Under the pieces are notes generated by a model. It was not told the origin of the DNA. It ran no database searches and worked only from the letters and a program-made list of their open reading frames with translations. The translations under genes and the position numbers were made by a program. A stretch of 64,000 nucleotides of DNA from Escherichia coli (lineage in GTDB: Bacteria > Pseudomonadota > Gammaproteobacteria > Enterobacterales > Enterobacteriaceae): the NCBI RefSeq assembly GCF_036507355.1, contig NZ_AP027877.1; one strand, given 5' to 3'. Of the stretch, positions 40,576 through 64,000 are shown in pieces; positions within the stretch are counted from its first letter, which is position 1, and every line of letters begins with the position of its first letter.

Positions 40576-41646
40576 ATGAAGCTGGTTGAACACTACATCA
40601 TGCGTGGTACGCGCCGTCTGGTGCTGATTATCGTCGGTTTTCTGATCTTTATTTTCGCCAGCTACTCCGCACAGCGTTATCTGACCGAAGCGGCAAATGG
40701 GACATTAGCTCTTGATGTTGTGCTGGATATCGTTTTCTACAAAGTGCTGATTGCACTGGAGATGTTGTTACCTGTTGGTCTGTATGTGTCAGTTGGCGTG
40801 ACGCTAGGGCAGATGTATACCGACTCGGAAATTACCGCTATCTCTGCGGCGGGGGGCAGTCCGGGACGCTTGTACAAAGCCGTTCTTTATCTGGCGATAC
40901 CGCTAAGTATTTTTGTCACCCTTCTGTCGATGTATGGTCGTCCGTGGGCTTATGCGCAGATTTATCAACTGGAGCAGCAGTCGCAGTCGGAGCTGGATGT
41001 TCGCCAGTTGCGGGCAAAGAAATTTAACACTAACGATAACGGACGAATGATCCTTTCGCAGACGGTTGATCAGGATAATAATCGCCTGACTGACGCGCTG
41101 ATTTATACTTCTACTGCCAATCGAACCCGCATTTTCCGCGCCCGTTCGGTTGATGTGGTTGACCCATCACCCGAGAAACCGACCGTTATGTTGCACAACG
41201 GCACTGCCTATCTTCTCGATCATCAGGGGCGTGACGACAACGAACAGATCTACCGTAATCTGCAATTACATCTGAATCCGCTGGATCAAAGCCCTAACGT
41301 CAAACGCAAAGCGAAATCGGTCACGGAGCTGGCGCGCTCCGTCTTTCCAGCCGATCATGCCGAACTGCAATGGCGACAAAGCCGTGGCCTGACCGCATTG
41401 TTGATGGCGCTGCTGGCCATTTCATTAAGTCGGGTAAAACCGCGGCAAGGGCGATTTTCAACATTATTGCCACTGACGTTGCTGTTTATTGCCATTTTTT
41501 ATGGCGGCGACGTCTGCCGTACGCTGGTGGCTAACGGCGCGATTCCCCTCATTCCTGGTTTGTGGTTAGTACCCGGACTCATGCTAATGGGCCTGCTGAT
41601 GCTGGTCGCACGCGACTTCTCTTTGCTGCAGAAATTTTCCCGATGA
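40576..41646 (+). CDS. LptF/LptG-family (YjgP/YjgQ) permease paralog 1
   Basis: 356-aa ORF; N-terminal TM segments; region LEMLLPVGLYVSVGVTLGQMYTDSEITAISAAG parallels the LptF motif [29 protein letters not shown] recalled from memory. Confidence 0.8.
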   Translation: MKLVEHYIMRGTRRLVLIIVGFLIFIFASYSAQRYLTEAANGTLALDVVLDIVFYKVLIALEMLLPVGLYVSVGVTLGQMYTDSEITAISAAGGSPGRLYKAVLYLAIPLSIFVTLLSMYGRPWAYAQIYQLEQQSQSELDVRQLRAKKFNTNDNGRMILSQTVDQDNNRLTDALIYTSTANRTRIFRARSVDVVDPSPEKPTVMLHNGTAYLLDHQGRDDNEQIYRNLQLHLNPLDQSPNVKRKAKSVTELARSVFPADHAELQWRQSRGLTALLMALLAISLSRVKPRQGRFSTLLPLTLLFIAIFYGGDVCRTLVANGAIPLIPGLWLVPGLMLMGLLMLVARDFSLLQKFSR

Positions 41647-42722
41647 ATGTTTTCAGTCGCTATTTAATCCGTCATCTCTTTCTCGGTTTTGCCGCCGCCG
41701 CAGGGCTATTGCTGCCGCTTTTTACCACCTTCAACCTGATTAACGAACTGGATGATGTCAGCCCGGGCGGTTATCGCTGGACTCAGGCGGTGCTGGTGGT
41801 GCTAATGACCTTACCGCGCACACTTGTCGAACTTTCGCCATTTATCGCCTTATTGGGAGGGATTGTCGGCCTGGGGCAGCTATCGAAAAACAGTGAGCTT
41901 ACCGCCATTCGCAGCACGGGGTTTTCTATCTTCCGTATTGCACTGGTGGCGCTGGTTGCCGGGATATTGTGGACTGTTTCGTTAGGCGCGATAGATGAGC
42001 GGGTAGCGTCGCCATTGCAGCAACAGGCGCTGCAAATCAAATCGACCGCCACCGCGTTGGGGGAGGACGATGACATTACCGGCAATATGCTGTGGGCCAG
42101 GCGCGGCAATGAATTTGTGACGGTGAAATCGCTGAATGAGCAGGGCCAGCCTGTGGGCGTGGAGATTTTTCATTATCGTGACGATCTCTCGCTCGAATCC
42201 TACATTTATGCACGCAGTGCCACCATTGAAGACGACAAAACGTGGATCCTGCATGGTGTGAATCATAAAAAATGGCTGAATGGCAAAGAAACGCTGGAAA
42301 CATTAGATAATCTTGCCTGGCAATCGGCCTTCACCAGTATGGATCTTGAAGAGCTATCGATGCCGGGGAATACTTTTTCTGTCCGTCAGCTTAATCATTA
42401 CATCCATTATTTGCAGGAAACCGGGCAACCCAGCAGCGAATACCGCCTTGCACTGTGGGAAAAACTGGGGCAACCCATCCTGACCCTGGCGATGATTTTG
42501 CTGGCTGTGCCGTTTACCTTTAGCGCCCCGCGCTCGCCAGGGATGGGTAGCCGTCTCGCTGTAGGCGTCATCGTTGGCTTACTCACCTGGATCAGCTATC
42601 AAATCATGGTCAATTTGGGATTGCTATTTGCGTTAAGCGCACCTGTTACCGCGCTCGGTTTACCGATAGCGTTTGTGCTGGTGGCGTTGAGCCTGGTGTA
42701 TTGGTATGACAGACAACATTAA
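41643..42722 (+). CDS. LptF/LptG-family (YjgP/YjgQ) permease paralog 2
   Basis: ORF 41562-42722 trimmed to ATG 41643 (MNVFSRYLIRHLFLGF..., 359 aa) overlapping the upstream stop (ATGA); same architecture as paralog 1. Confidence 0.8.
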   Translation: MNVFSRYLIRHLFLGFAAAAGLLLPLFTTFNLINELDDVSPGGYRWTQAVLVVLMTLPRTLVELSPFIALLGGIVGLGQLSKNSELTAIRSTGFSIFRIALVALVAGILWTVSLGAIDERVASPLQQQALQIKSTATALGEDDDITGNMLWARRGNEFVTVKSLNEQGQPVGVEIFHYRDDLSLESYIYARSATIEDDKTWILHGVNHKKWLNGKETLETLDNLAWQSAFTSMDLEELSMPGNTFSVRQLNHYIHYLQETGQPSSEYRLALWEKLGQPILTLAMILLAVPFTFSAPRSPGMGSRLAVGVIVGLLTWISYQIMVNLGLLFALSAPVTALGLPIAFVLVALSLVYWYDRQH

Positions 42723-42723
42723 A

Positions 42724-42750
42724 CCCGCCGTGGCGCAACACCACGGCGGG
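42724..42750. terminator. Hairpin between convergent operons (putative bidirectional terminator)
   Basis: CCCGCCGTGG-CGCAACA-CCACGGCGGG perfect 10-bp stem in the 34-bp gap between the two convergent stops. Confidence 0.5.
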
Positions 42751-42756
42751 CTCACA

Positions 42757-43929
42757 TTACTGCTTCAGAGTAGCAAATGCCTGAATGATGGCATCGATTT
42801 GCTCACGACTGTGGGCAGCGTTTACGCTACAGCGCAGCAGCGTGATGCCTGCAGGCGCGGCAGGTGGCAGGATAAGATTCACATAAACGCCCAGCGAAAT
42901 AAGCTCGCGCCAGATGCGTAAACCTTCCTCTTTCGAACCGATTATTACCGGCACTACCGGACTAATATGTGAACTTAACTCATAACTCAGCTTTTGCAGC
43001 CCGTCATACAGATGGTTGGCATTATCCATCAGTTTTTGCCGCAACTCTGGTTGAGTGGCAATGGTTCTTAACGACGAGCGCACGGTTGCAATGCAGGAAG
43101 GAGAAGGGGAGGCGGTAAAAATATACGGACGACTGCCGTAGCGCAGCACTTCCATCGCTTCCGAACCCACGGCAAAACCACCAATAGAAGCCAGGCTTTT
43201 ACTGAAGGTGCCAACGATAATATCCACATCATCTTCAACGCCAACGGCTTCAACCAGCCCGCGCCCCGTTGCGCCTAACACGCCAAACGAGTGAGCTTCA
43301 TCGACAATTAAATATCCGCCGAGACGACGTTTGATATCAACAATTTCCGCCAGCGGCGCAACGTCACCGAGCATACTGTAGATGCCCTCAACGATGATAA
43401 TCGCCTCTTTCGCCCGTTCACCGAGGCGAACCATGCGCCGTTCCAGATCTTTAGCATCGTTATGGCGGAAACGAATAATTTCCGCGCCACCGAGAGAACA
43501 GGCGTCATAAATACTGGCGTGGCTGTCAGCATCCAGTAACACCACGGCGTTATGGTCGGCAAGTGCGCTGATGACGCCTAAATTAGCGGTATAACCGGTT
43601 GAAAAAACGATAGCGGTAGGGCGATTGAAAAACTCAGCAATCTCTTTCTCTAACGCCAGATGCGGCGCATAACTGCCGTTTGCCATACGAGAACCGGTGG
43701 TGCCGGTGCCTTGGGCCGCTAACGCTGCCTGACCTTCGGCGATGGCATCATGATTGAAGGTTAATCCGAGATAATTATTGGTCCCGGCCAGAATCACTTT
43801 TTTATTGCCGATCCGGCCTTCGGTGGCGGAATACACTTCATCAATACAGGTGCCAAACGGTGTTAACCCGTTGTCACTAAATTGCAGACGCTCGCCAGCA
43901 AGGCGCGCATATTTATCGTATAGCCCCAT
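42757..43929 (-). CDS. PLP-dependent alpha-oxoamine synthase, serine-palmitoyltransferase-like
   Basis: 390-aa ORF; DEAHSFGVLG and GTFSKSLASIGGF (PLP-lysine motif of the AONS/SPT/KBL family); ATG overlaps the stop of the upstream ACP gene. Confidence 0.85.
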   Translation of the reverse strand: MGLYDKYARLAGERLQFSDNGLTPFGTCIDEVYSATEGRIGNKKVILAGTNNYLGLTFNHDAIAEGQAALAAQGTGTTGSRMANGSYAPHLALEKEIAEFFNRPTAIVFSTGYTANLGVISALADHNAVVLLDADSHASIYDACSLGGAEIIRFRHNDAKDLERRMVRLGERAKEAIIIVEGIYSMLGDVAPLAEIVDIKRRLGGYLIVDEAHSFGVLGATGRGLVEAVGVEDDVDIIVGTFSKSLASIGGFAVGSEAMEVLRYGSRPYIFTASPSPSCIATVRSSLRTIATQPELRQKLMDNANHLYDGLQKLSYELSSHISPVVPVIIGSKEEGLRIWRELISLGVYVNLILPPAAPAGITLLRCSVNAAHSREQIDAIIQAFATLKQ

Positions 43930-44177
43930 TATTTATTCTCCAGCCATGGAAGTAGAGTTTCCATTAATTGCGCAGGGGTTTTGACATCCAGCAGAATATT
44001 AATAGGAATGGAAATATCGAATCTGTCTTCCAGCATCATTAAGAGATCCATCACTTTGATCGACTCCAGGCCAAGATCGTTGACGAGATCGCTGTCGGGC
44101 TTAATTTCCACACCGTTTTCGACCAAATCCTGTAAACAGGAAAGGATGTAATCCATTACTATTTCACGATTTACCAT
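43929..44177 (-). CDS. Acyl carrier protein (dedicated, non-AcpP)
   Basis: 82-aa acidic ORF with DLGLESIKVMDL phosphopantetheine-attachment-type serine motif. Confidence 0.8.
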   Translation of the reverse strand: MVNREIVMDYILSCLQDLVENGVEIKPDSDLVNDLGLESIKVMDLLMMLEDRFDISIPINILLDVKTPAQLMETLLPWLENK

Positions 44178-44208
44178 AGAAACGTTAACACACCTTTAAA
44201 CAAGACAA

Positions 44209-45123
44209 TCAAAATAGCCCGTTGCGTAATGCGTGTTCCAGGCTAATCCCGGGAAACCAATTAATATCTTCAGAAATACGGTTATTACTTGCCGACCAGT
44301 CGGCGTGGGTTAATTCACGAATTTTCGAGCGGGTCAGCATAGGTTCTTTACCTGCCAGGCGACTCAACGCGGTACTGATATCCGCAAGGCAGGTGAGTAC
44401 CGGCAGAGGAATGCCAACCATTCGCACGGAACCACAACGGGCGTCGGCGGCAAGTTGCTGTACGCGTTGCCAGTCATAGCCGCCAGCGACGCCATCGCAT
44501 AATTCATAGGTTTGCGTCTGTACAGTTTCGGCGCTTAACCACTGACCCACTGCTTGCGCAAAATCGGTGACATGCAGGAAAGAGAGCTGTGTATCTGGTG
44601 CACCAAGTCGTGGCAGCAGGCCGCGCAGCATCCAGTCAAACAGCGGTTTTAACTCTTTATCGCCGGGACCATACACGGCTGTCGGGCGAAAAACGCCCAG
44701 CGTAATTTCGTCAGCCATTGCCGTCAGCCGTTGTTCGGCGACGTGTTTGGAATTTGCGTACCAGGAGAGCTCGGGATGGCGCGCCGCCAGCGAAGAGATA
44801 AACAGAAAACGTTGGCAAAAGCCGCTCTCTTTTGCTGCTTGCATCAGGCGCAGGCTGCCGTCAACGTTACAGTGGGTAAAAATCTCTTCTTTGTGTCCGC
44901 GCACTTGCCCGGCGCAATGGACCACCGCGCTGGCTCCGGCAACCAGTTCGCTAAGCGAATGTGTATCTTCCAGCGAACCGCGCACCCAAGTAAGATTATC
45001 ATTGACGTGAGCGCGGGCAGTACGCGTCAATGCGCGAACGTGAAAGCCGCGGGCGAGCAGGTTATCGATAATATATTTACCGATAAAACCGGTAGCGCCC
45101 GTCACCGCGACAGTTTGATTCAT
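44209..45123 (-). CDS. NAD(P)-dependent epimerase/dehydratase-family (extended SDR) reductase
   Basis: 304-aa ORF; N-terminal VTGATGFIGKYI Rossmann motif; YANSK (YxxxK) catalytic motif; start overlaps the upstream stop (ATGA). Confidence 0.8.
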   Translation of the reverse strand: MNQTVAVTGATGFIGKYIIDNLLARGFHVRALTRTARAHVNDNLTWVRGSLEDTHSLSELVAGASAVVHCAGQVRGHKEEIFTHCNVDGSLRLMQAAKESGFCQRFLFISSLAARHPELSWYANSKHVAEQRLTAMADEITLGVFRPTAVYGPGDKELKPLFDWMLRGLLPRLGAPDTQLSFLHVTDFAQAVGQWLSAETVQTQTYELCDGVAGGYDWQRVQQLAADARCGSVRMVGIPLPVLTCLADISTALSRLAGKEPMLTRSKIRELTHADWSASNNRISEDINWFPGISLEHALRNGLF

Positions 45124-46841
45124 GCCAGGGATTCCTGCACATGAAGGCTTGCAGCATAAGCCTTCTGATAACGTTTTTTCGCTTCCGCACGGGCAGGCTT
45201 GCCGGAGGACGTTCGGGGAATGCTGTGGGGCGGCAACAGATCGATAGCCGCGGTCACGCCAAATTCGCTTTGGATCCGTGCTGCCAGCGCGTGGATAAGC
45301 TGCCCGCGACGTTCTTCATCGCTGATCCGACACTGGATCTGCAAAATGATTTTTTCCTGGACGGTAACAAAAGCAATCGCATCGCCAGAATGAATTTCCG
45401 GTTCCTGTTCCGCTATATATTCAATATCCTGCGGCCAGATATTACGGCCACGAATAATAATCAGATCTTTAATGCGTCCGGTGACATACAGATAACCATC
45501 CAGCAGATAACCGAGGTCGCCAGTGTCTAACCAGCCCGTCGCGGCAATCTCGTCTTGCGAAGCCTGGTCGCCAAAGTAACCGCTCATCAGACTGGGACCG
45601 GAGATGCAAATATGGCCTACCACACGTTCCGCGACCGGCATACCTGCTTGATTGCGGATTTCAATACCATGTTCCGGCAACGCTTTGCCGCAGTTGACGA
45701 AAGTCGATACGGCGCGTGTCTCTGCACCCGGCGCGACGGCTTTACCCTGATATTCGAGGATGTCGCGATCCACTTCGTTAACTACAACCCCGGAGGCTTC
45801 ATCAGAGAAGCTGACAGCCAGCGCATTTTCTGCCAGGCCGTAGCACGGCATGAAAGTTTTATCGTCAAAGTTAACCTGACGGAAACATTCAGCGAATTGA
45901 TGGAGTTGTTCTGCGGAGATGGGTTCTGCACCAATACCAGCGACGCGCCAGCAGGAAAGATCCAGTTCAGCGAGATCTTTTTCATTCACGCGGCGCTGGC
46001 ACAATTCATAGCCAAACGGCGGCGCAACGGAAACGGTGCCGCGATTTTTACTGATCAATTTAAGCCATTGCAGAGGACGCATGGCAAAATCCTGAGTGCG
46101 CAAATAATCTACTGAAAGTTGCGTGGCGACGGGGGTCAGGAGAAAGCCGACCAGTCCCATATCATGGTAGAAAGGCAGCCAGGAGACGCAGCGGTCGCCA
46201 GGGCGTAATTTAATGCCGTCGTGGCTTATAGCACGTAGATTAGCCATCACTTCGCGATGGGTGATAATGACGCCACGGGGAAAACGGGTGCTGCCGGAGG
46301 TGTACTGGAGGTAGGCGATATCGTTCGGAACTGGACGCTGGAGCGCAACATCGGCTTCCGGTAATGCCTTAAACCAGGCGTGGCTTAAAACATGTAATTC
46401 GGGGTTGTCATGCGTCGCGGCATTGACCAGTGGCAACCACTCATCACCAGTGATAATGGCTGCGGGCTGGCAACTTGTCAGTAAACCCTGCAATTTGGCG
46501 CTCCAGGAATCCCGCTGACCAACGCCCATTGGAATCGCCAACGGGACGGCGACTAAGCCGGCATACTGGCAGGCAAAAAAAGCCTCTACGAACCCGCTAC
46601 TTGTTTCGGCAATCAGTGCCACGCGATCGCCTTTTTTCAGGTTCAGCGATAACAACCGCTTCGCACCAGCTTCGGCACGCGCTTTTAACGTCTGATATTC
46701 CAGTTGATCTTCAAGTTGGCAACGTCTGTCATAAAAATTCATTCCAGCGCTACTCAGAGCGGCGTAGTCCAAAGCATCAACCAGCGTTGGAAAATCGGCA
46801 TAGCGTATAGGTAGGGAATGCGTAAAGATTTTATTAGACAT
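45120..46841 (-). CDS. Fatty acyl-AMP ligase / acyl-ACP synthetase (adenylate-forming enzyme)
   Basis: ORF 45120-46850 (GTG) trimmed to ATG 46839-46841 (MSNKIFTHSL...); AMP-binding core motifs YTSGSTRFPRGV and TGDLGY...GRIKDLIIIRGRNI. Confidence 0.85.
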   Translation of the reverse strand: MSNKIFTHSLPIRYADFPTLVDALDYAALSSAGMNFYDRRCQLEDQLEYQTLKARAEAGAKRLLSLNLKKGDRVALIAETSSGFVEAFFACQYAGLVAVPLAIPMGVGQRDSWSAKLQGLLTSCQPAAIITGDEWLPLVNAATHDNPELHVLSHAWFKALPEADVALQRPVPNDIAYLQYTSGSTRFPRGVIITHREVMANLRAISHDGIKLRPGDRCVSWLPFYHDMGLVGFLLTPVATQLSVDYLRTQDFAMRPLQWLKLISKNRGTVSVAPPFGYELCQRRVNEKDLAELDLSCWRVAGIGAEPISAEQLHQFAECFRQVNFDDKTFMPCYGLAENALAVSFSDEASGVVVNEVDRDILEYQGKAVAPGAETRAVSTFVNCGKALPEHGIEIRNQAGMPVAERVVGHICISGPSLMSGYFGDQASQDEIAATGWLDTGDLGYLLDGYLYVTGRIKDLIIIRGRNIWPQDIEYIAEQEPEIHSGDAIAFVTVQEKIILQIQCRISDEERRGQLIHALAARIQSEFGVTAAIDLLPPHSIPRTSSGKPARAEAKKRYQKAYAASLHVQESLA

Positions 46842-46850
46842 ATACACCAC

Positions 46851-56118: not shown

Positions 56119-57801
56119 ATGGTTACCTGGACCCAAATGTATATGCCGATGGGAGGACTGGGGCTATCCGCTCTGGTTGCCCTGATCCCAATAATATTCT
56201 TCTTCGTTGCACTTGCGGTATTACGTCTGAAAGGACATGTCGCCGGAGCGATAACCCTTATATTATCTATCCTGATTGCGATATTCGCCTTTAAAATGCC
56301 GATTGATATGGCATTTGCTGCTGCGGGCTATGGCTTTATTTATGGTTTATGGCCAATTGCGTGGATTATTGTCGCGGCGGTGTTCCTGTATAAATTAACC
56401 GTTGCCAGCGGACAGTTCGATATTATCCGCAGCTCGGTTATCTCCATCACCGACGATCAGCGTTTGCAGGTGTTACTGATTGGTTTCTCCTTTGGTGCGT
56501 TGCTGGAAGGAGCGGCTGGCTTTGGTGCGCCGGTGGCGATTACCGGTGCGCTGCTGGTGGGCCTGGGCTTCAAACCGTTATACGCGGCGGGGCTGTGTCT
56601 GATTGCCAATACTGCGCCGGTGGCGTTTGGTGCGTTGGGCGTGCCGATTCTGGTCGCCGGTCAGGTAACGGGAATCGATCCGTTCCACATTGGCGCAATG
56701 GCGGGACGTCAGTTACCGTTCCTGTCGGTTCTTGTGCCGTTCTGGCTGGTAGCAATGATGGACGGCTGGAAAGGGGTGAAAGAGACGTGGCCAGCGGCGC
56801 TGGTTGCTGGGGGAAGCTTCGCTGTCACTCAGTTCTTTACCTCTAATTATATTGGTCCGGAACTGCCGGATATTACTTCGGCGCTGGTGAGTATCGTCTC
56901 ACTCGCTTTATTCCTTAAAGTCTGGCGGCCGAAAAATACCGAAACGGCAATCAGCATGGGACAATCCGCAGGTGCGATGGTGGTAAATAAGCCATCTTCT
57001 GGCGGTCCCGTACCTTCAGAATATAGTCTGGGGCAAATCATTCGAGCGTGGTCACCGTTTTTAATCTTAACGGTGCTGGTCACCATCTGGACCATGAAGC
57101 CGTTTAAAGCGTTATTTGCTCCGGGCGGCGTGTTTTATTCACTGGTGATTAATTTCCAGATCCCTCATTTGCATCAACAAGTGTTGAAAGCGGCACCCAT
57201 TGTCGCCCAACCAACGCCAATGGATGCGGTGTTTAAATTCGACCCCCTCTCGGCTGGCGGCACCGCTATTTTTATTGCGGCGATTATCTCTATCTTCATC
57301 CTCGGCGTGGGCATCAAGAAAGGGATTGGCGTCTTTGCCGAAACGCTAATTAGTCTGAAGTGGCCGATATTGTCGATTGGCATGGTGCTGGCGTTCGCCT
57401 TCGTCACCAACTATTCCGGCATGTCCACCACGCTGGCGCTGGTACTGGCAGGTACAGGCGTGATGTTCCCGTTCTTCTCACCGTTCCTCGGTTGGCTGGG
57501 GGTATTCCTTACCGGCTCGGACACTTCTTCAAACGCCCTGTTTGGTTCACTGCAATCGACCACGGCGCAGCAAATCAACGTCTCTGACACTCTGCTGGTG
57601 GCAGCAAATACCAGCGGCGGCGTAACTGGCAAGATGATCTCCCCGCAATCTATCGCCGTGGCCTGCGCCGCGACGGGCATGGTGGGCCGAGAATCTGAAC
57701 TGTTCCGCTACACCGTGAAGCACAGTCTGATTTTTGCCAGCGTTATCGGCATTATCACGCTGCTGCAGGCGTATGTGTTTACTGGAATGTTAGTCTCGTA
57801 A
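56119..57801 (+). CDS. glcA: Glycolate/lactate permease (LctP family)
   Basis: 560-aa polytopic [37 protein letters not shown]...; recognised as GlcA. Confidence 0.95.
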
Positions 57802-57810
57802 GTCAATAAT

Positions 57811-57850
57811 GCCGGATGAAGGTAAATATCATCCGGCTTTCCATTTGTTT
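57811..57850 (+). terminator. Rho-independent terminator after glcA
   Basis: Hairpin GCCGGATGA-AGGTAAATA-TCATCCGGC followed by TTTCCATTTGTTTG. Confidence 0.6.
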
Positions 57851-58170
57851 GTCGTTTATCTCGCCAGGGAACCGTTTTTACGATTGGCTTCTTAATACAT
57901 AGTCTCCGTTTTACAATGCAAATTGTTTAATATTTATACGTCTGAGCTTCTGTGCTGGTTATAAAGCACCCACTTTCATGAGATCAATTTTAGTATGTTA
58001 TTACATTGCTACGTCTGTTCTTTTCATGACGAATGGCGTTTTTTCTCTTGTTTGTATTTTTCACGAGAGCAATGAGCAGATCAAAATTCCCAAAAACATA
58101 AGATTATTCGCAATGAATCGCCACGGGTTTAACAGACACCTCAGAGTCATTTAAGATGGCTTAAAGAGAG

Positions 58171-58455
58171 GTGCCCATGAGCGGTAAGCGTTATCCCGAA
58201 GAGTTTAAAATTGAAGCAGTCAAACAGGTTGTTGATCGCGGTTATTCTGTTGCCAGCGTTGCAACACGTCTCGATATCACCACCCACAGCCTTTACGCCT
58301 GGATAAAGAAGTACGGTCCGGATTCTTCCGCTAATAAAGAACAGTCAGATGCTCAGGCCGAGATCCGCCGTCTCCAGAAAGAGCTGAAGCGGGTTACCGA
58401 CGAACGGGACATATTAAAAAAAGCCGCGGCGTACTTCGCAAAGCTGTCCGACTGA
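58171..58455 (+). CDS. IS3-family transposase OrfA (HTH domain)
   Basis: 94-aa ORF MPMSGKRYPEEFKIEAVKQVVDRGYSVASVATRLDITTHSLYAWIKKYG... with leucine-zipper-like C-terminus typical of IS3 OrfA. Confidence 0.9.
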   Translation: MPMSGKRYPEEFKIEAVKQVVDRGYSVASVATRLDITTHSLYAWIKKYGPDSSANKEQSDAQAEIRRLQKELKRVTDERDILKKAAAYFAKLSD

Positions 58456-59324
58456 GGTACGCCTTTATCCGTGACAACACCTGTTGCTGGCCTGTTCGCC
58501 TGCTCTGTCGGGTGCTGGATGTTCATCCCAGTGGTTTTTACGCCTGGCTTCAGCAGCCGCATTCACAACGCCATCAGGCAGACCTGAGGCTGACAGGGCA
58601 GATTAAACAGTTCTGGCTGGAATCGGGATGCGTCTATGGTTATCGCAAAATCCATCTGGATCTGCGGGACAGCGGGCAACAGTGCGGAGTGAACAGAGTC
58701 TGGCGACTGATGAAACGTGTCGGGATAAAGGCTCAGGTCGGATACCGGAGCCCGCGGGCACGTAAAGGCGAGGCCAGTATCGTGTCGCCCAACAGGCTCC
58801 AGCGACAGTTCAATCCGGATGCTCCGGATAAGCGTTGGGTAACGGACATAACCTACATCAGGACCCACGAAGGCTGGCTGTATCTTGCCGTGGTTGTTGA
58901 TCTGTTCTCACGCAAAATTATCGGCTGGTCCATGCAATCCCGGATGACAAAGGACATTGTCCTGAACGCACTGCTGATGGCTGTATGGCGCCGTAATCCC
59001 CAAAAACAGGTGCTGGTTCATTCGGATCAGGGCAGTCAGTACACAAGCCATGAGTGGCAGTCGTTCCTGAAATCACACGGCCTGGAGGGCAGCATGAGCC
59101 GTCGCGGTAACTGCCATGATAATGCGGTTGCAGAAAGCTTTTTCCAGTTGTTGAAACGCGAACGGATAAAGAAAAAGATCTACGGAACGCGGGAAGAAGC
59201 CCGCAGCGATATTTTTGATTACATCGAAATGTTTTATAACAGTAAGCGTCGGCATGGTTCCAGCGATCAGATGTCACCGACAGAATATGAAAACCAGTAT
59301 TATCAACGGCTCGGAAGTGTCTAG
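58416..59324 (+). CDS. IS3-family transposase OrfB (DDE integrase core), expressed as OrfAB fusion by -1 frameshift
   Basis: -1 frame is open from the slippery site; contains WVTDITYIRTHEGWLYLAVVVDLFSRKIIGWSM, HSDQGSQYTS and CHDNAVAESFF DDE-core motifs; the first in-frame ATG is at 58512. Confidence 0.85.
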   Translation, partial: KKSRGVLRKAVRLRYAFIRDNTCCWPVRLLCRVLDVHPSGFYAWLQQPHSQRHQADLRLTGQIKQFWLESGCVYGYRKIHLDLRDSGQQCGVNRVWRLMKRVGIKAQVGYRSPRARKGEASIVSPNRLQRQFNPDAPDKRWVTDITYIRTHEGWLYLAVVVDLFSRKIIGWSMQSRMTKDIVLNALLMAVWRRNPQKQVLVHSDQGSQYTSHEWQSFLKSHGLEGSMSRRGNCHDNAVAESFFQLLKRERIKKKIYGTREEARSDIFDYIEMFYNSKRRHGSSDQMSPTEYENQYYQRLGSV

Positions 59325-59339
59325 ATTACCCGTGGCGAT

Positions 59340-59555
59340 TCAGTCATCAGTAATTACGCTGTCATCCAGTTTCGCATAACAGATACTGTCATCACCGGCT
59401 TCAATATAGCTGGAAAAATTCTCACTGATGAAGCGGTAGAAAAGGGCACCGAGTACATACTGTTTAAAATCCCATCCATCTACGGAGCCTCTGACATCAT
59501 TGGCAATGGCCCAGATTTGGCGGTGTAGCTCTGCACGCTGCTGAAGGCTTGTCAT
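59340..59555 (-). pseudogene. hsdM: Truncated type I restriction-modification methyltransferase (hsdM) N-terminal remnant
   Basis: 71-codon ORF MTSLQQRAELHRQIWAIANDVRGSVDGWDFKQYVLGALFYRFISENFSSYIEAGDDSI... matches the N-terminus of type IC HsdM (EcoR124-like) as I recall it, then runs directly into the IS right end. Confidence 0.7.
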
Positions 59556-59758
59556 TTTGTATCCTGTTGTATGATTCTTAAGTACTGTTATTGGCCCGAT
59601 TTTATCGTAATTTCATATTGATGACAGGCTTTGTATGTCATACGTTGCACTGAGAGTTCGTTTGCCCGGTTGTGTAGGCAGCGCTCTTTCAGCCAGGTCA
59701 GTAGAAACGTTGCGCTGACGATAAATACTGAAGCCCCAATACCATCGGGGCTGAACGT

Positions 59759-61636
59759 TCAGTCGGTGAGAATTTCTTCATCCGTATCCATTGTGGATGG
59801 TGATGAATCTATTTTTGTTGTAAGAAATACCCGATTCAGTAGTCTTTGCTTCAGGGCGTTTCTTCGCTCATTGTAGAACTCCGGGAAGCGACTGAACTCA
59901 ATATTTTCATCTGAAACTAACAGCATTGATGGCGAATAGTTGTTTGATGGCTGAGATAGCCATTGTTTCAGGGAAGTATCCTGTTTACTTATATTCTGAG
60001 AGTGATTCAGTAAATGAAGATTAGGTATGGTGTCCCAGTGCTCCGGATTTTCATAAAAGCTGAGGTTCTCTGGTGTATTCGCAACATAATCTAATTTTTC
60101 AAGATATTTCTTTGAAAAATGATTTCTTGGGTGAAGGTGATCAATATGAAACACCTCGGTCGGATTCATTTCAGGGAACAGAAGATGCAATAGTGCGCGG
60201 CAACGACCTTCGCCATATCTGATATTGAGAAGGCTTTCGATGTATTCGTCGTCAAATCTGAGGTCTTTATTCGAGCCTTTATATCTGTCAATAATCTTCT
60301 CAAGAGGAAAGTGAATATCTGAAAGACTATTTTTCATTACATCTCTGATACTCGTGAGTAGCGCATCTGCCTGGCTTCCAAAGATCCCTTTCAGAAGTAC
60401 CATGTAAAACCACTGGCTAATTACTGAGCGTTCATTGTGGTTTTTATTCAGGAGATTAATCGTTGTATATAATGGATGTCCACTGGTTTGCTTTTTGTAA
60501 AGCCAGTAGACCACAGGAATGACTGCATTTTTAGATATCAAAGACTGTGGATTGATGCCGAATCGCCTGATAAGAATAAAGGTCTCCTTGATACAGGATT
60601 TTATTTCAGACCATTGTTGTTGTATCTTACCGACCTCCTCTGAAGTGAAGTTTTTTACTTTGAACCGGACGTCAGAGTCAATAAGCATCAGGCTGGTTTT
60701 TAAGAACCAGTCTCTTTCAATATAAAAACCCATTTCATTATTCTGATAAATGTTTTTTGTCAGTTCATCCAGTTCTTTTCTGAAATCACCCTGCCAGTGC
60801 GCTACCGCTATTGACATCAGTAAGTCTGAAAACTCAAGTTTTGTCCCCCCGCTGTTCGTGCGGATGAAAACATCCAGCACATGATCAATGTCCTGACTGC
60901 TCTCATTGAAGTAGTGGATAAGATTCTCAGTTCTTATCTTGGTATAAAGTTTAAGCAGAGTTTTTCTGGAAAATTCACTGGAAATGAGATCTCTTTTTTC
61001 AAGTTCTGGTACGACAACGTTAAATAAAATATCATCAGGCGAATCATGTTGCTCGTATTTGAATATTTCGTGCAGGCAGAACCAGTGATGTTTGTTATCG
61101 GCAAGTGAATCAGTATATTGCTTCTCGGTCAGGAACCTGAAGTTATACTTCATCATGAGCTCATCGTCTGACTTAAGTGGCGCGGTTAAATCGACGTAAA
61201 GCTTTCTGGGTGGCAGGATGCGATCATCCTGTGCCGAAGGCCACCACATCCGGGGCTGTTTATACGCATACGTTCCACACAATCCAATATATAATGATGT
61301 GAGACGCTGCTGACCATCAATCACGGCCTTGAAATCATGAAACCCAGCATTTGTTGCTACGCAGGGGTTTTCTTCATTAAATCGCTGACAGTATTCTTTC
61401 AGGAACTCATAGAATTTGTAATCATTTTTAATACTGGCACTACGGATATCCCACATCATGAAAGAGTTTATCGGGTAGTCTCGCATGATGGAATCAAACA
61501 GCAAACATATCTGACTGCTGCTCCAGACGAACTTCCTCTGAATTGCAGGCAGAAGATAGTGGCGTAAATTAATTGAATCTATCGCTTGTTTTATCGTTAT
61601 TGCTTTTTCATACTGGCCAGCCATCATAAACCTCAT
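59759..61636 (-). CDS. DUF262/DUF1524 (GmrSD-like) putative type IV restriction / defence nuclease
   Basis: 625-aa ORF; N-terminal DUF262 signatures (LPAIQRKFVW, LFDSIMRDYPINSF, VIDGQQRLTSLYIGL); C-terminal His-Me/HNH-like DUF1524 region (HIDHLHPRNHF ... NLHLLNHSQN). Confidence 0.8.
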   Translation of the reverse strand: MRFMMAGQYEKAITIKQAIDSINLRHYLLPAIQRKFVWSSSQICLLFDSIMRDYPINSFMMWDIRSASIKNDYKFYEFLKEYCQRFNEENPCVATNAGFHDFKAVIDGQQRLTSLYIGLCGTYAYKQPRMWWPSAQDDRILPPRKLYVDLTAPLKSDDELMMKYNFRFLTEKQYTDSLADNKHHWFCLHEIFKYEQHDSPDDILFNVVVPELEKRDLISSEFSRKTLLKLYTKIRTENLIHYFNESSQDIDHVLDVFIRTNSGGTKLEFSDLLMSIAVAHWQGDFRKELDELTKNIYQNNEMGFYIERDWFLKTSLMLIDSDVRFKVKNFTSEEVGKIQQQWSEIKSCIKETFILIRRFGINPQSLISKNAVIPVVYWLYKKQTSGHPLYTTINLLNKNHNERSVISQWFYMVLLKGIFGSQADALLTSIRDVMKNSLSDIHFPLEKIIDRYKGSNKDLRFDDEYIESLLNIRYGEGRCRALLHLLFPEMNPTEVFHIDHLHPRNHFSKKYLEKLDYVANTPENLSFYENPEHWDTIPNLHLLNHSQNISKQDTSLKQWLSQPSNNYSPSMLLVSDENIEFSRFPEFYNERRNALKQRLLNRVFLTTKIDSSPSTMDTDEEILTD

Positions 61637-61697
61637 ATGTTATATTAGCTGGCCTATTTTAATTTATTGCGTGTCGGTAGTACAGTCTTTGCACAAA

Positions 61698-62027
61698 CTA
61701 ATTTATGCAATGGAAAAGCTGACGGCTCGGTTTGTGTTTTTCATTCGGGTAGACTCGCATTGCGGATGCACAAAGTGATGAAACCTGTCTTGCTATATTT
61801 TTACCGAAGTTAACAAGTAGGCCGTGCTTTATTTTTTCACCCTCTGCCCTGATGCTGATGACAAAGCTGAACTGATATACGATTACCTCAATGAGGTCAT
61901 TGCCAAATGTTATGATGGCGGCGTTGTTTATTTCATATTCATAATCCCTCAGGTCAGTGTTAAGTCTTGCTGTTGCATTTACAAGTGCGTATTCTTTATC
62001 GATAATCATAACTTTCTCACTTATCAT
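61698..62027 (-). CDS. Hypothetical small protein (109 aa)
   Basis: ORF with ATG start between the WYL regulator and the DUF262/DUF1524 gene on the same strand; no recognisable motif. Confidence 0.45.
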   Translation of the reverse strand: MISEKVMIIDKEYALVNATARLNTDLRDYEYEINNAAIITFGNDLIEVIVYQFSFVISIRAEGEKIKHGLLVNFGKNIARQVSSLCASAMRVYPNEKHKPSRQLFHCIN

Positions 62028-62067
62028 GTTAATGTGATTTAATCATCACTAATAATATGTTGTGATT

Positions 62068-62781
62068 TTAATTACGATTATTCGTCTGTTTACTCCCGTA
62101 ATGCATTATCTGATGAATAATGTTCATGTGGGGTAAGGCTTCCATAAAGTCAGACTGTTCAATCAGCGAAATGAGTGTGTTATCGATCTCAAACGTTGTA
62201 TCCGGTAATACCTCAACCAGCCTGATTCGGGACAGGGAAATAACGAACACGCCCGATGACGTACATCCGGCAAGAAACCACTCCGCATGGCTGCAAAGCA
62301 GACGATAGGGATGAACGGTATGGCTGACGTTTTCGTCGGTTCTGATACGCACCTTGGTCTGGTTAAGTATGGCGAGCGTTAGTCTGCTGAAATCACCGAA
62401 CAGCGTGGGTTTCTGGCGCGGCTCCGGGAGCATAATCCGGTAGGGTGAAGGGTGCTCCCCGTCAAGCAGAAGGCTCAGCAGTTTGGCATCCATCGCGGGT
62501 AACAGACGGTCAAGATGCAGCAGTCTCGCCAGTATCTTCATATCTCGTTCCGTGCGGCGACGAAAGTAATGTGAGGCAAGCTGATACACGCCGTTGCTCT
62601 GTTCAATATCAAGGTAGGTCAGACGGACGTTGAAATCCCGCCGCAGCGTTCGCGTTGTCACTCCAAATTCTTCTGCCAGCGTCCCGATATGCAGCTTTTC
62701 ACCCTGAAACAAACGGCTCAGGATGATGGAAAGGCGGGTTGCCAGTCTGTCATGTTCGTTTTCTTGTGTTATCAGCGTCAT
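62068..62781 (-). CDS. WYL-domain transcriptional regulator (HTH + WYL), BrxR/CapW-like
   Basis: 237-aa ORF; N-terminal HTH (IGTLAEEFGVTTRTLRRDF); central W[YF]L-type region (HPYRLLCSHAEWFLAGCTSSGVFVISLSRIRLVEVL). Confidence 0.7.
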   Translation of the reverse strand: MTLITQENEHDRLATRLSIILSRLFQGEKLHIGTLAEEFGVTTRTLRRDFNVRLTYLDIEQSNGVYQLASHYFRRRTERDMKILARLLHLDRLLPAMDAKLLSLLLDGEHPSPYRIMLPEPRQKPTLFGDFSRLTLAILNQTKVRIRTDENVSHTVHPYRLLCSHAEWFLAGCTSSGVFVISLSRIRLVEVLPDTTFEIDNTLISLIEQSDFMEALPHMNIIHQIMHYGSKQTNNRN

Positions 62782-62883
62782 ACATCATTTCCGAATTTAG
62801 CCGGGAAATGATGCCAGCAGTAGCGGACAGGATTTGTCCACCCTCTGAAGTTTTTTAAAGTCTGAATACCTTAAATGTAAGTG

Positions 62884-63633
62884 CTAAACGTCAGTATTCT
62901 CAGGTGAATAAAGATGCTTCTGGCGCATGTAGGCAATAAAAATGCAGGATGGTAGCGTCACCCGGTATGCGGGACCGGCTAAATCAATCAGCAGCCAGAG
63001 AGAACTGAGCACCCAGCCCACAGGACCGGCAAAAGCGCCCATGGTACGCGTCAGCATGGCATTTCCTGCAACGGTCAGCCCTCTGCCTAACAGGGCTTTC
63101 GCCACACCATTTGTGACAACAAGTGCCATCTGATAGGCCGCAAACCCGGATGTTTTTATCCCCGCCTGGATTGCCATGGTCAGCAACTCCGGCGTGGGGT
63201 TGCTGTAGCCTGTCTGCAATTCTTCCGCCACGGTCTTTAACTGATCGGGCGTCATCTTCTCAAGGCTTTTCTCCAGGATCTTCATCAGCAGATTCATTTC
63301 AATGGTTTCAACACTGGATTTGTTGTTGTAGTTCACCTTCATTTTATCGCAGGCATCGGTGAGAATTTCCCGGTACGGCACCCCTTTACCCCAGCGGAGC
63401 AGCGTGGCAAAGCTGTTCGCCCCAAACGTCTGAACCTCGGCGGCAATGGCATCCCAGTAGCGCGGGTGGTTGGGCTTGTGTTTTTTATACTGAGGATCAT
63501 AGGTCAGCGTTTCCGTGATGCGTGCCAGTCCGTCTTTCGGATCGCAGATAAGCACAGAAACCAGTAAATCCAGATCGTCACGATGGCAGTGGCGCAGAAA
63601 CTCAAGGTCGGGGTCGTGTCGGTAGGTAGCCAT
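62884..63633 (-). CDS. Hypothetical protein, possibly YaaW-like (UPF0174/DUF3944)
   Basis: 249-aa ORF; acidic N-terminal DDLDLLVSVL region and glycine-rich hydrophobic C-terminus (GAFAGPVGWVLSSLWLLIDLAGPAY); family assignment from memory, low certainty. Confidence 0.4.
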   Translation of the reverse strand: MATYRHDPDLEFLRHCHRDDLDLLVSVLICDPKDGLARITETLTYDPQYKKHKPNHPRYWDAIAAEVQTFGANSFATLLRWGKGVPYREILTDACDKMKVNYNNKSSVETIEMNLLMKILEKSLEKMTPDQLKTVAEELQTGYSNPTPELLTMAIQAGIKTSGFAAYQMALVVTNGVAKALLGRGLTVAGNAMLTRTMGAFAGPVGWVLSSLWLLIDLAGPAYRVTLPSCIFIAYMRQKHLYSPENTDV

Positions 63634-63707
63634 ATTTCACCTCATTGCAGATATTGGACCTGACAGTTTAAGGAAGCCACCGGACAGGGCTTGTCCGCCT
63701 GAAAAAC

Positions 63708-63745
63708 AAAAAAGTAAAAAAAACCTGCCGAAAGCAGGTTTCTGT
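63708..63745 (-). terminator. Rho-independent terminator for the partial minus-strand gene at the window end
   Basis: Hairpin AACCTGC-CGAAA-GCAGGTT; on the minus strand it is followed by a T-rich run (plus-strand AAAAAACAAAAAAGTAAAAAAA). Confidence 0.55.
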
Positions 63746-63776
63746 TCACCGGATGGAGGTATAACGCGTCGGGATT

Positions 63777-64000
63777 ACTTTCCGCGCCATTCCTTTTCCA
63801 CTTTATCCGCAAAAGCATCGCACTGCCGGGCATATTCCGGGTTATAGAGCAGCTCCGACTGCGAAAGCTGCATGGCGGTCATGCTGCCGTTACGGGCATT
63901 TGATTCGAGCCAGGTTCTGCCATAGGTTTTGTTCATCACCTGAAGTACCCGGTTGAATACCGGTCCGTTGAAGCGGGCATTGAGATTAACGCCTTTTACC
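63777..64000 (-). CDS. Partial CDS (C-terminal 74 codons), unknown product; gene continues beyond window end
   Basis: Open minus-strand frame ending ...VLQVMNKTYGRTWLESNARNGSMTAMQLSQSELLYNPEYARQCDAFADKVEKEWRGK then TAA at 63777-63779, followed by the terminator. Confidence 0.55.

Follow-up and report, generated by a model that had tools for sequence, protein, structure and literature searches.

In the 64-kb stretch of Escherichia coli DNA analysed here (64,000 nucleotides, termed the window), an intact ISEhe3 copy appears to sit at a novel joint left by a deletion running from a point past glcA into hsdM, a reading to which we assign a probability of about 80%. The event itself is of an already known kind: IS-associated deletions are ordinary, and this region often rearranges. 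The joint and its surroundings comprise the following features:

56119–57801, plus strand: glcA, last gene of the glc operon, intact, 560 amino acids (open reading frame list; glcA annotation in matching genomes).
57802–58113, no strand: left flank, of which 57802–57846 is common to most E. coli and the rest is specific to a tad variant, cut at 58113.
58114–59342, plus strand: ISEhe3-type insertion sequence (IS3 family), intact, 1229 bp (copy identity, OrfA name).
59343–59555, minus strand: hsdM fragment, first 71 codons, type I restriction-modification (HsdM_N, TIGR00497).
59759–61636, minus strand: DUF262/GmrSD_N gene, intact, next gene of the island.

The first-pass annotation had placed an IS3-family element between glcA and hsdM, and each item it listed for that element is present at 58114–59342. 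Full-length E. coli copies share 99.9% identity with the window element, 178 genomes hold one, and 7 of the full-length copies read differ from it by a single base. The window OrfA is identical to the UniRef protein ‘ISEhe3 transposase A’. ISEhe3 was first described from the Pantoea agglomerans plasmid pPATH; PMC10425158 cites it under ISfinder accession AF327445 and lists it in the IS51 group of the IS3 family, with direct repeats of 3–4 bp. A duplication length of 3 bp is typical of the IS51 group. The window copy resembles it in its 1229 bp, TG...CA ends, two frames with a -1 frameshift, DDE transposase and 3-bp duplications elsewhere; it differs in having no duplication itself and in a base change at 59329 that gives perfect 15-nt terminal repeats. 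On this evidence the window element would be an ordinary intact ISEhe3; the name comes from the UniRef OrfA label and from a published table whose values for length, family and size of the duplication it matches. Its left end was found in 111 stretches across Enterobacterales species. The parts of the element are:

58114–58128, plus strand: left terminal repeat (IRL), TGAATCGCCACGGGT.
58177–58455, plus strand: orfA, 92 amino acids, HTH_Tnp_1.
58416–58423, plus strand: A7G slippery site for a -1 programmed frameshift (read from the sequence).
58422–59324, plus strand: orfB frame, rve integrase core, D,D(35)E.
58428–58463, plus strand: predicted 11-bp hairpin, 5 nt 3' of the slippery site.
59328–59342, minus strand: right terminal repeat (IRR), TGAATCGCCACGGGT.

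The transposase is complete. The A7G run is phased A AAA AAA against the orfA frame and the -1 frame continues without a stop between 58422 and 59324, so that 58177–58422 joined to 58422–59324 yields an intact OrfAB of 382 amino acids; the open reading frame list, the sequence reading and the RefSeq label for the same coding sequence in other genomes (‘IS3 family transposase, programmed frameshift’) all agree with the frameshift arrangement proposed earlier. OrfAB matches Pfam rve (1.7e-33), HTH_Tnp_1 (2.2e-22), HTH_21 and rve_2, and the NCBIfam equivalog NF033516, ‘IS3 family transposase’, at 437.7 bits against a cut-off of 160. The catalytic motifs are WVTDITY, HSDQGSQY and AVAESFF, with 35 residues between the second D and the E; together with rve and NF033516, this spacing upholds the DDE core that had been claimed. 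Fused orfA/orfB frames, a DDE domain with an N-terminal HTH, and TG...CA termini are thus all found, as in the IS3 family, and a target-site duplication is not. The predicted hairpin at 58428–58463 is a possible candidate for a frameshift stimulator, although the z-score for the 91-nt fold was not significant. An Rfam search in and around the element gave no family match, a single sub-threshold snoRNA match being attributable to chance.

Both ends of the element carry TGAATCGCCACGGGT, which confirms the 15-bp perfect terminal inverted repeats described earlier. The window contains no further match; 0.13 are expected by chance, and two or more occurred in 0 of 100 shuffles. An imperfect repeat reaches 38 nt at 76%. 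At IS position 1216 (window 59329) the window copy has C, and all 30 other full-length genomic copies read have T, so the usual ISEhe3 repeat consists of 13 perfect bases, 1 mismatch and 1 match. The sole base separating the window copy from the 7 near-identical copies is the terminal-repeat mismatch itself, now in the IRL state; about 18 of 3687 possible substitutions would homogenize the repeat in this way. The C is not unique to the window copy beyond the 30 genomic copies, as 3 metagenome contigs with roughly 95–97% relatives of the element carry it too.

No direct repeat of 3 or 4 bp flanks the element (...TTATTCGCAA, IS, GTCATCAG...), and none arises from shifting the boundaries. The reported mismatch of the flanking triplets, CAA versus GTC, holds, and a duplication that might have emerged on refining the boundaries was looked for at these ends and not found. 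Intact references leave no ambiguity about the boundaries, since the left flank is followed there by A and the right flank is preceded by T. Three-base-pair duplications sit at precisely these ends in 5 of 8 near-identical copies from E. coli and, among full-length 1229-bp copies from other species, in 4 of 17; a 90% relative whose insertion site is a homologous hsdM has a GTT duplication. The same-end duplications in E. coli and the 90% relative indicate that the window boundaries are correct, and the presence of duplications in other copies implies that their absence here reflects later rearrangement rather than a different kind of element. Copies without a duplication are common for ISEhe3 (3 of 8 in E. 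coli, 13 of 17 in other species), so the missing repeat signals past rearrangement yet is unsurprising.

On the left, the core glc operon ends as described: glcA stops at 57801, 312 bp before the element. Homology to the window in about 4300 genomes stops at 57839–57846, and the following 267 bp (57847–58113) are 100% identical in 36 genomes that carry a variant leading into the tad/Flp pilus locus. Past the left joint, intact genomes continue with AGCTGATTTTGC..., then a winged-helix regulator and the Flp/tad genes. The first-pass annotation had remarked on the absence of the large lipoprotein gene and type II secretion genes that K-12 has beyond glcA; the lost DNA is not this yghJ/type II secretion block, as the retained 267 bp match the tad/Flp variant. 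A long-range inversion, raised by an ‘lptG’ beside spt upstream of glc in RM9872 and the window, was rejected: an lptF/lptG-like pair adjoins spt in 4087 of 5426 genomes, which makes this the normal arrangement, and K-12 is without the pair.

On the right, hsdM is cut after 71 codons, as first noted, reading from 59555 down to 59343, and the TGA at the end of the element (59342–59340) serves as its stop codon. The fragment covers positions 1–66 of the 515 of TIGR00497. In intact hsdM (1557 nt; GPEC1189 and AHM9C68I) the sequence directly before the truncation point is ...CGTCTTTAAT. The window holds no complete hsdRMS system: hsdS and hsdR, which adjoin hsdM in GPEC1189, AHM9C68I and G3/10, are missing and 71 codons of hsdM are left. 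From 59343 to 64000 the window is colinear with GPEC1189 at 99.83%. That genome, the best right-flank match (99.7–99.8%), carries the island inside frvX; G3/10 carries it at a second tRNA-Phe, beside dicD; and in AHM9C68I it is bounded by the glc side at one end and by tRNA-Phe/yqgA/speC at the other, its hsdM and DUF262 genes being oriented as in the window. Judging from other genomes, the island of the window strain would end at pheV, the window stopping 4.6 kb past the element.

Compared with intact references at the glcA-distal junction, both flanks stop mid-sequence. Each is an internal fragment that is continuous and colinear elsewhere, and the element between them has validated boundaries and no duplication, which supports the junction of an adjacent deletion or inter-IS recombination proposed in the first-pass annotation. 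The order glcA ... hsdRMS-DUF262 ... tRNA-Phe, in the same orientations, occurs in AHM9C68I and LR-50. Because the island is thus normally colinear with glcA towards pheV, the event is better read as a local deletion than as a translocation; transfer from another locus, such as the frvX site of GPEC1189 or the dicD site of G3/10, was rejected as less simple. Of the earlier ‘synteny break’, the break itself is real, but it reflects the local loss of DNA within the glcA-pheV interval, which is hypervariable, and not a long-range rearrangement.

Similar losses have arisen elsewhere. LR-50 has glcA, 570 bp, IS1, a truncated hsdM (120 codons) and the DUF262 gene. In both LR-50 and AHM9C68I the same island or hsdM is cut, glcA or pitB is brought beside island DNA, and an IS stands at the joint; the IS is IS1, however, and the breakpoints differ, at hsdM codon 120 in LR-50 and from pitB to the far end of the island in AHM9C68I. 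These deletions are independent of the window event. The window junction, or ISEhe3 at either site, was found in 0 of 5426 complete E. coli genomes; the junction was not found in species-representative genomes either, and exact-sequence searches for its two specific products (71 and 58 amino acids) found none on record. The exact DUF262 protein occurred in only one 2.6-kb Logan contig, which has 8 base differences and ends inside hsdM. No relative was found with the same junction but without the IS.

A junction seen in no other assembly raises the question of an artefact, in which two real ISEhe3 copies, one per site, were collapsed and the interval between them dropped; a collapsed repeat would give exactly unrelated flanks and no duplication. 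We consider this very improbable. The contigs of close relatives read through their own IS and are also without tad at this position, independent deletions of the same interval exist, and the window element shows a distinguishing base of its own, not a consensus sequence.

Those relatives were identified through the exact GlcB protein, exact GlcA being too common for the purpose. Two genomes, GCA_047852605.1 and GCA_021425525.1, differ from the window by 4 SNPs in 14.5 kb of flank, and both have an ISEhe3 end at the very nucleotide of the window's left junction; that end, however, is IRR, so the element is inverted. In both, the ISEhe3 part belongs to a hybrid ISEhe3::ISEc52-like element. They share with the window the clone, the left junction, the absent tad interval and a truncated hsdM, but their ISEhe3 part is inverted and extends over only 252 bp, and a conserved stretch of 44 nt marks its fusion to a part that is 98.9% identical to ISEc52. 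Their hsdM is cut at codon 11, in a 92%-identical island allele, compared with codon 71 in the window; against GPEC1189, the right-hand island allele scores 92% in the relatives and 99.8% in the window. The junction of the ISEc52-like part with hsdM is also found in 160-11H1. The left joint is older than the strain, given that two relatives at 4 SNPs share it as an ISEhe3 end. With that end inverted, neither plain RecA recombination of direct copies nor an adjacent deletion starting at the ancestral copy would produce the orientation found in the window. The history took more than one step: neither a single adjacent deletion nor plain direct-copy recombination easily explains both lineages.

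The most likely course of events, we infer, is an exchange between two ISEhe3 copies. The ancestor would have carried glcA, the spacer, the tad/Flp pilus locus and more variable DNA, followed by the distal end of a pheV-type island (hsdR, hsdS, hsdM, DUF262). ISEhe3 would already have been at the left site in the ancestor of the clone, as the junction shared with the relatives suggests; a second copy would then have inserted in hsdM between codons 71 and 72; and exchange between the two would have removed the interval plus both 3-bp duplications. The stretch from 312 bp past glcA to hsdM codon 72 is missing, and the IS stands at the joint. The loss may amount to some 30 kb, of which tad, fimbrial and T6SS-remnant DNA would make up roughly 24 kb and the island 8–9 kb.

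A less likely route needs a single copy: ISEhe3 would have inserted in hsdM, with GTC as its duplication, and transposase would have joined its left end to a site 312 bp past glcA, either intramolecularly or with stimulation from the IS-excision enhancer (IEE), so that the interval disappeared along with one GTC. The element is by its sequence intact and so potentially active, and copies without duplications are frequent, as given above. IS3-family elements such as IS629 give adjacent deletions when IEE is present. Kusumoto et al. reportedly described such IEE-promoted deletions by IS629, and by the IS3 family, in EHEC in 2011; the likeness, an IS3-family element at a deletion edge without a duplication, is a resemblance only. 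Classic replicative adjacent deletions are not known to arise from the copy-out-paste-in transposition of the IS3 family. The target would, moreover, have to be the nucleotide at which the relatives already have an ISEhe3 end, which is very unlikely unless resident ends are targeted. Targeting of the IS911 type joins 3 nt outside a resident end, and this 3-nt offset is not seen at the window junction. ISEhe3 itself has been linked to an adjacent deletion, its insertion being tied to the loss of 24.5 kb in an IncC plasmid (PMC6872532), a precedent for the main reading as well.

Exchange within the 13-nt TGAATCGCCACGG common to both termini, which we also regard as unlikely, would start from the inverted ancestral left copy and replace the DNA to the right of TGAATCGCCACGG. 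It could proceed through deletion at short homology, with the IRL of a forward-oriented copy in hsdM as partner, through IRL-IRR flipping in situ, or through import of a foreign island segment anchored at one side on the microhomology. The same junction nucleotide in opposite orientation, in relatives separated by 4 SNPs in 14.5 kb, fits such an exchange, as do the different island alleles (92% versus 99.8% to GPEC1189) and the position of the sole IS base difference, which turns the terminal-repeat mismatch to the IRL state. With no obvious target consensus among 10 duplicated sites, a small sample, a hotspot at the left site is unsupported. On the other hand, 13 nt is shorter than RecA normally needs, no one crossover point yields both ends (the left is canonical IRL and only the right is hybrid), and the C variant in diverged metagenome relatives may be mere polymorphism. 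As a general process, an IS3-family orientation switch or replacement of neighbouring DNA by exchange within 13–15 nt of shared termini, keeping the joint of flank and TGAATCGCCACGG and leaving the T-to-C change at 59329 as a footprint, seems more doubtful still. Such a footprint could come from mismatch repair of an IRL-IRR heteroduplex, or from quasi-palindrome template switching at the IRR-IRL junction of a transposition circle. If the shared junction with its inverted IS end and the base change do reflect such an exchange, they would add modestly to the known ways in which the IS3 family reshapes genomes.

For annotation, the region is best labelled as ISEhe3 with a truncated hsdM pseudogene at its flank; the case matters little otherwise. 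The consequence of the deletion is that a whole type I restriction-modification system and the tad locus are gone from the glcA-pheV interval, with the glc operon and the DUF262 gene intact. Loss of tad/Flp and of type I restriction-modification could affect adhesion and barriers to DNA uptake.

At the edge of the glc operon, an intact insertion sequence (IS) without a target-site duplication stands at the joint of two truncated, normally colinear sequences. The element (IRL and IRR, its left and right terminal inverted repeats, included) and its surroundings comprise the following features, in window positions.

Up to 57801: glcA, which ends here
58114-59342: IS3-family element of 1229 bp, ends formed by inverted TGAATCGCCACGGGT
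58177-58455: orfA, overlapping the -1 frame
58416-58423: A7G run inside the orfA/-1 frame overlap, phased A AAA AAA relative to the orfA frame
58422-59324: open -1 frame
59555-59343, minus strand: hsdM fragment of 71 codons, matching the HsdM N-terminus

By every tested feature the element belongs to the IS3 family, duplication excepted, and other copies do have the duplication. The perfect terminal repeats described in the first-pass annotation are present: TGAATCGCCACGGGT was found twice in the window, both times at the element ends (chance expectation 0.13). The orfA/orfB arrangement with its A7G frameshift site and DDE core was likewise recovered. A -1 slip at the run results in a 382-aa OrfAB that matches Pfam HTH_Tnp_1, HTH_21, rve and rve_2, scores 437.7 bits against the NCBIfam equivalog 'IS3 family transposase' (cut-off 160) and holds its D, D and E residues in WVTDITY, HSDQGSQY and AVAESFF, with 35 residues from the second D to the E. 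An 11-bp hairpin is predicted at 58428-58463, beginning 5 nt 3' of the slippery site, where frameshift stimulators of the IS3 family are usually located; it had no match in Rfam, and folding of the 91-nt stretch gave an energy that was not significant.

The OrfA sequence is that of a protein recorded under the UniRef name 'ISEhe3 transposase A', and we take the element to be ISEhe3 from this public-source name. ISEhe3 is placed in the IS51 group of the IS3 family, with 3-4 bp direct repeats and TG ends (PMC10425158). The window IS is 99.9% identical to full-length E. coli copies, which occur in 178 of 5426 complete E. coli genomes, both on chromosomes and on plasmids. Its exact 27-nt left end recurs across Enterobacterales, in 111 stretches from species-representative genomes whose hosts include Pantoea, Erwinia, Enterobacter, Klebsiella, Citrobacter and Salmonella arizonae. 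The same left end lies on two contigs (L074, L075) of the MAG 'Bacillota bacterium OH_SBlB_54', a label that probably reflects mis-binned enterobacterial DNA.

The three bases outside the IS are CAA on the left and GTC on the right, in line with the claim that no duplication is present. Five of the eight near-identical E. coli copies read have a perfect 3-bp duplication (GGT, TTA, CCG, CGC, AAG) abutting exactly the ends proposed for the window, and three have none; among full-length 1229-bp copies in other species, a 3-bp duplication was seen in 4 of 17 and was absent from 13. E. coli STEC309 (L002, NZ_CP041435.1, 12001-13229) carries a 1229-bp, 90%-identical ISEhe3 relative with a clean GTT duplication in a homologous hsdM. 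Because chance would give a 3-bp duplication in only 1 in 64 copies, these cases establish that the window boundaries are correct and that ISEhe3 normally produces a 3-bp duplication. Copies without one are common. A direct repeat appearing on boundary refinement had been named as evidence against the first reading; the ends were confirmed by the other copies, and CAA versus GTC stands. The STEC309 hsdM is in a leuX-linked island, with the insertion 111 bp from the window's hsdM position, and IS elements seem to strike hsdM genes repeatedly. Four duplication-less copies from different hosts (L012, L094, L109, L110) have right flanks opening TACTTT, TACTTC, TACTGA and TACTTC; the shared TAC suggests that the IS and some neighbouring DNA move jointly in some contexts.

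On the left, the glc operon ends with glcA on the IS side, as first described. In ~4300 genomes similarity to the window is lost 38-45 bp past glcA, and the next 267 bp are matched in only 36 genomes, all at 100%. Those genomes run on as AGCTGATTTTGC... and reach a winged-helix regulator and a Flp/tad pilus locus of 12 kb; in strain TB06052, fimbrial-type genes and a T6SS remnant come next, with island DNA beyond them. The commoner genome type has a 1519-aa M60-peptidase lipoprotein (YghJ/SslE) and a prepilin peptidase after glcA. The lipoprotein and type II secretion genes named for K-12 beyond glcA in the first-pass annotation belong to this commoner arrangement; the window's left flank is the tad variant. 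What comes after glcA in E. coli is one of two alternative sets of genes, which diverge from window 57839-57846 (stretches L003, L006, L007 and L139 versus L017-L020): a common set of yghJ/sslE plus type II secretion genes, and the rare regulator and Flp/tad set, present in 36-41 of 5426 complete genomes, many of them O145:H28.

On the right, hsdM is indeed cut after 71 codons, and the stop of the fragment is a TGA supplied by the final three IS bases. An island bearing hsdR-hsdS-hsdM-DUF262 and further genes is colinear with window 59343-64000 (identity 99.83% in GPEC1189, 98.6% in AHM9C68I, 97.8% in G3/10 and 97.3% in LR-50); its intact copies read ...CGTCTTTAAT directly before the start of the window's right flank. 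Because intact genomes continue past each joint, with AGCTGATTTTGC on the left and CGTCTTTAAT on the right, both flanks are internal fragments.

The integration site of this island varies by strain, being frvX in GPEC1189 and tRNA-Phe beside dicD in G3/10. AHM9C68I has it flanked by the glc side and by tRNA-Phe/yqgA/speC; hsdM and DUF262 are oriented as in the window, and an IS1-bounded loss runs from pitB to the island's far end. There (L004, 2364-5846), two IS1 copies link a truncated pitB straight to the far end, and the entire glc operon and its neighbours are missing. LR-50 (L016, NZ_AP025551.1, 7572-9213) has glcA, ~570 bp, IS1A (IS1), hsdM cut at codon 120 and then the same DUF262 island, a parallel, independent event that involved a different IS. 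Deletion of the glcA-to-hsdM interval has happened at least twice, each time through a different IS. A local deletion of this interval is the simplest reading of the window sequence, and the DNA lost would be ~24 kb plus 8-9 kb, with TB06052 and the island copies as guides. A large inversion, prompted by RefSeq lptF/lptG labels on two genes upstream of the glc operon, was rejected, as the pair lies beside spt in 4087 genomes and is the normal arrangement. This second lptF/lptG-like pair (window 40576-46850), presumably absent from K-12, sits beside a cluster of serine palmitoyltransferase, acyl carrier protein, epimerase and fatty acyl-AMP ligase upstream of yghO-glcC, in 4087 of 5426 genomes.

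Only seven contigs encode a GlcB protein identical to the window's. The two that we read, GCA_047852605.1 and GCA_021425525.1, show 4 differences from the window in 14.5 kb, versus ~210 in other tad-variant genomes, and share its left joint, ...TTATTCGCAA meeting TGAATCGCCACGG. Past that joint they carry the right end of ISEhe3, inverted relative to the window IS, within a hybrid IS3-family element (14523-15769 in L140, from GCA_047852605.1; also in L141, from GCA_021425525.1). The ISEhe3 part is limited to 252 bp of that right end; the remaining ~1 kb, also inverted, is ISEc52-like (98.9% to ISEc52), fused in a 44-nt conserved stretch around the catalytic E motif. The left end of the ISEc52-like part adjoins hsdM codon 11 of an island allele 92% identical to the window's; complete genomes, 160-11H1 among them, share this ISEc52-like/hsdM-codon-11/DUF262 junction. 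A single step, recombination of an inverted left-site ISEhe3 with the ISEc52-like element, accounts for the arrangement in the relatives.

The window IS is forward at the same nucleotide where the relatives' ISEhe3 end is inverted. Homologous recombination between IS copies never alters which end faces a given flank. Either the left site was struck twice or DNA past the shared 13 terminal nucleotides was swapped; in the latter alternative, exchange in the 13-nt termini would have replaced the window's right-hand DNA. The ten duplicated sites share no visible target consensus, which gives no support for a hotspot at the left site.

Under the local-deletion reading, a second ISEhe3 copy would have entered hsdM, and exchange between it and the left-site copy would have produced the joint. 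Transposase-driven adjacent deletion from one copy is an alternative for the same duplication-less element. A published plasmid deletion of 24.5 kb has ISEhe3 at its edge (PMC6872532). The left joint is common to the window and its clone's relatives; no other occurrence of the right joint was found among 5426 complete E. coli genomes, junction-specific 71-aa/58-aa products or species-representative genomes, and assembly collapse is a further alternative.

The window IS differs from seven near-identical copies only at IS position 1216 (window 59329), where it has C and the 30 other genomic copies read all have T. Over the terminal 15 nt no other position separates the two repeats, and the C converts the right one to the sequence of the left; of 3687 possible substitutions, only about 18 would homogenise the repeats in this way. 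The C may be a polymorphism, because three metagenome contigs with roughly 95-97% ISEhe3 relatives share it. Base change and orientation difference are both unexplained; they could stem from an exchange inside the termini, from in-situ flipping accompanied by mismatch repair, from template switching at abutted transposition-circle ends, or from chance. The event itself is an IS-associated deletion in a variable region beside a tRNA-linked island, a well-known class and already known in kind; the small unexplained feature would deserve a look in complete genomes of this clone.
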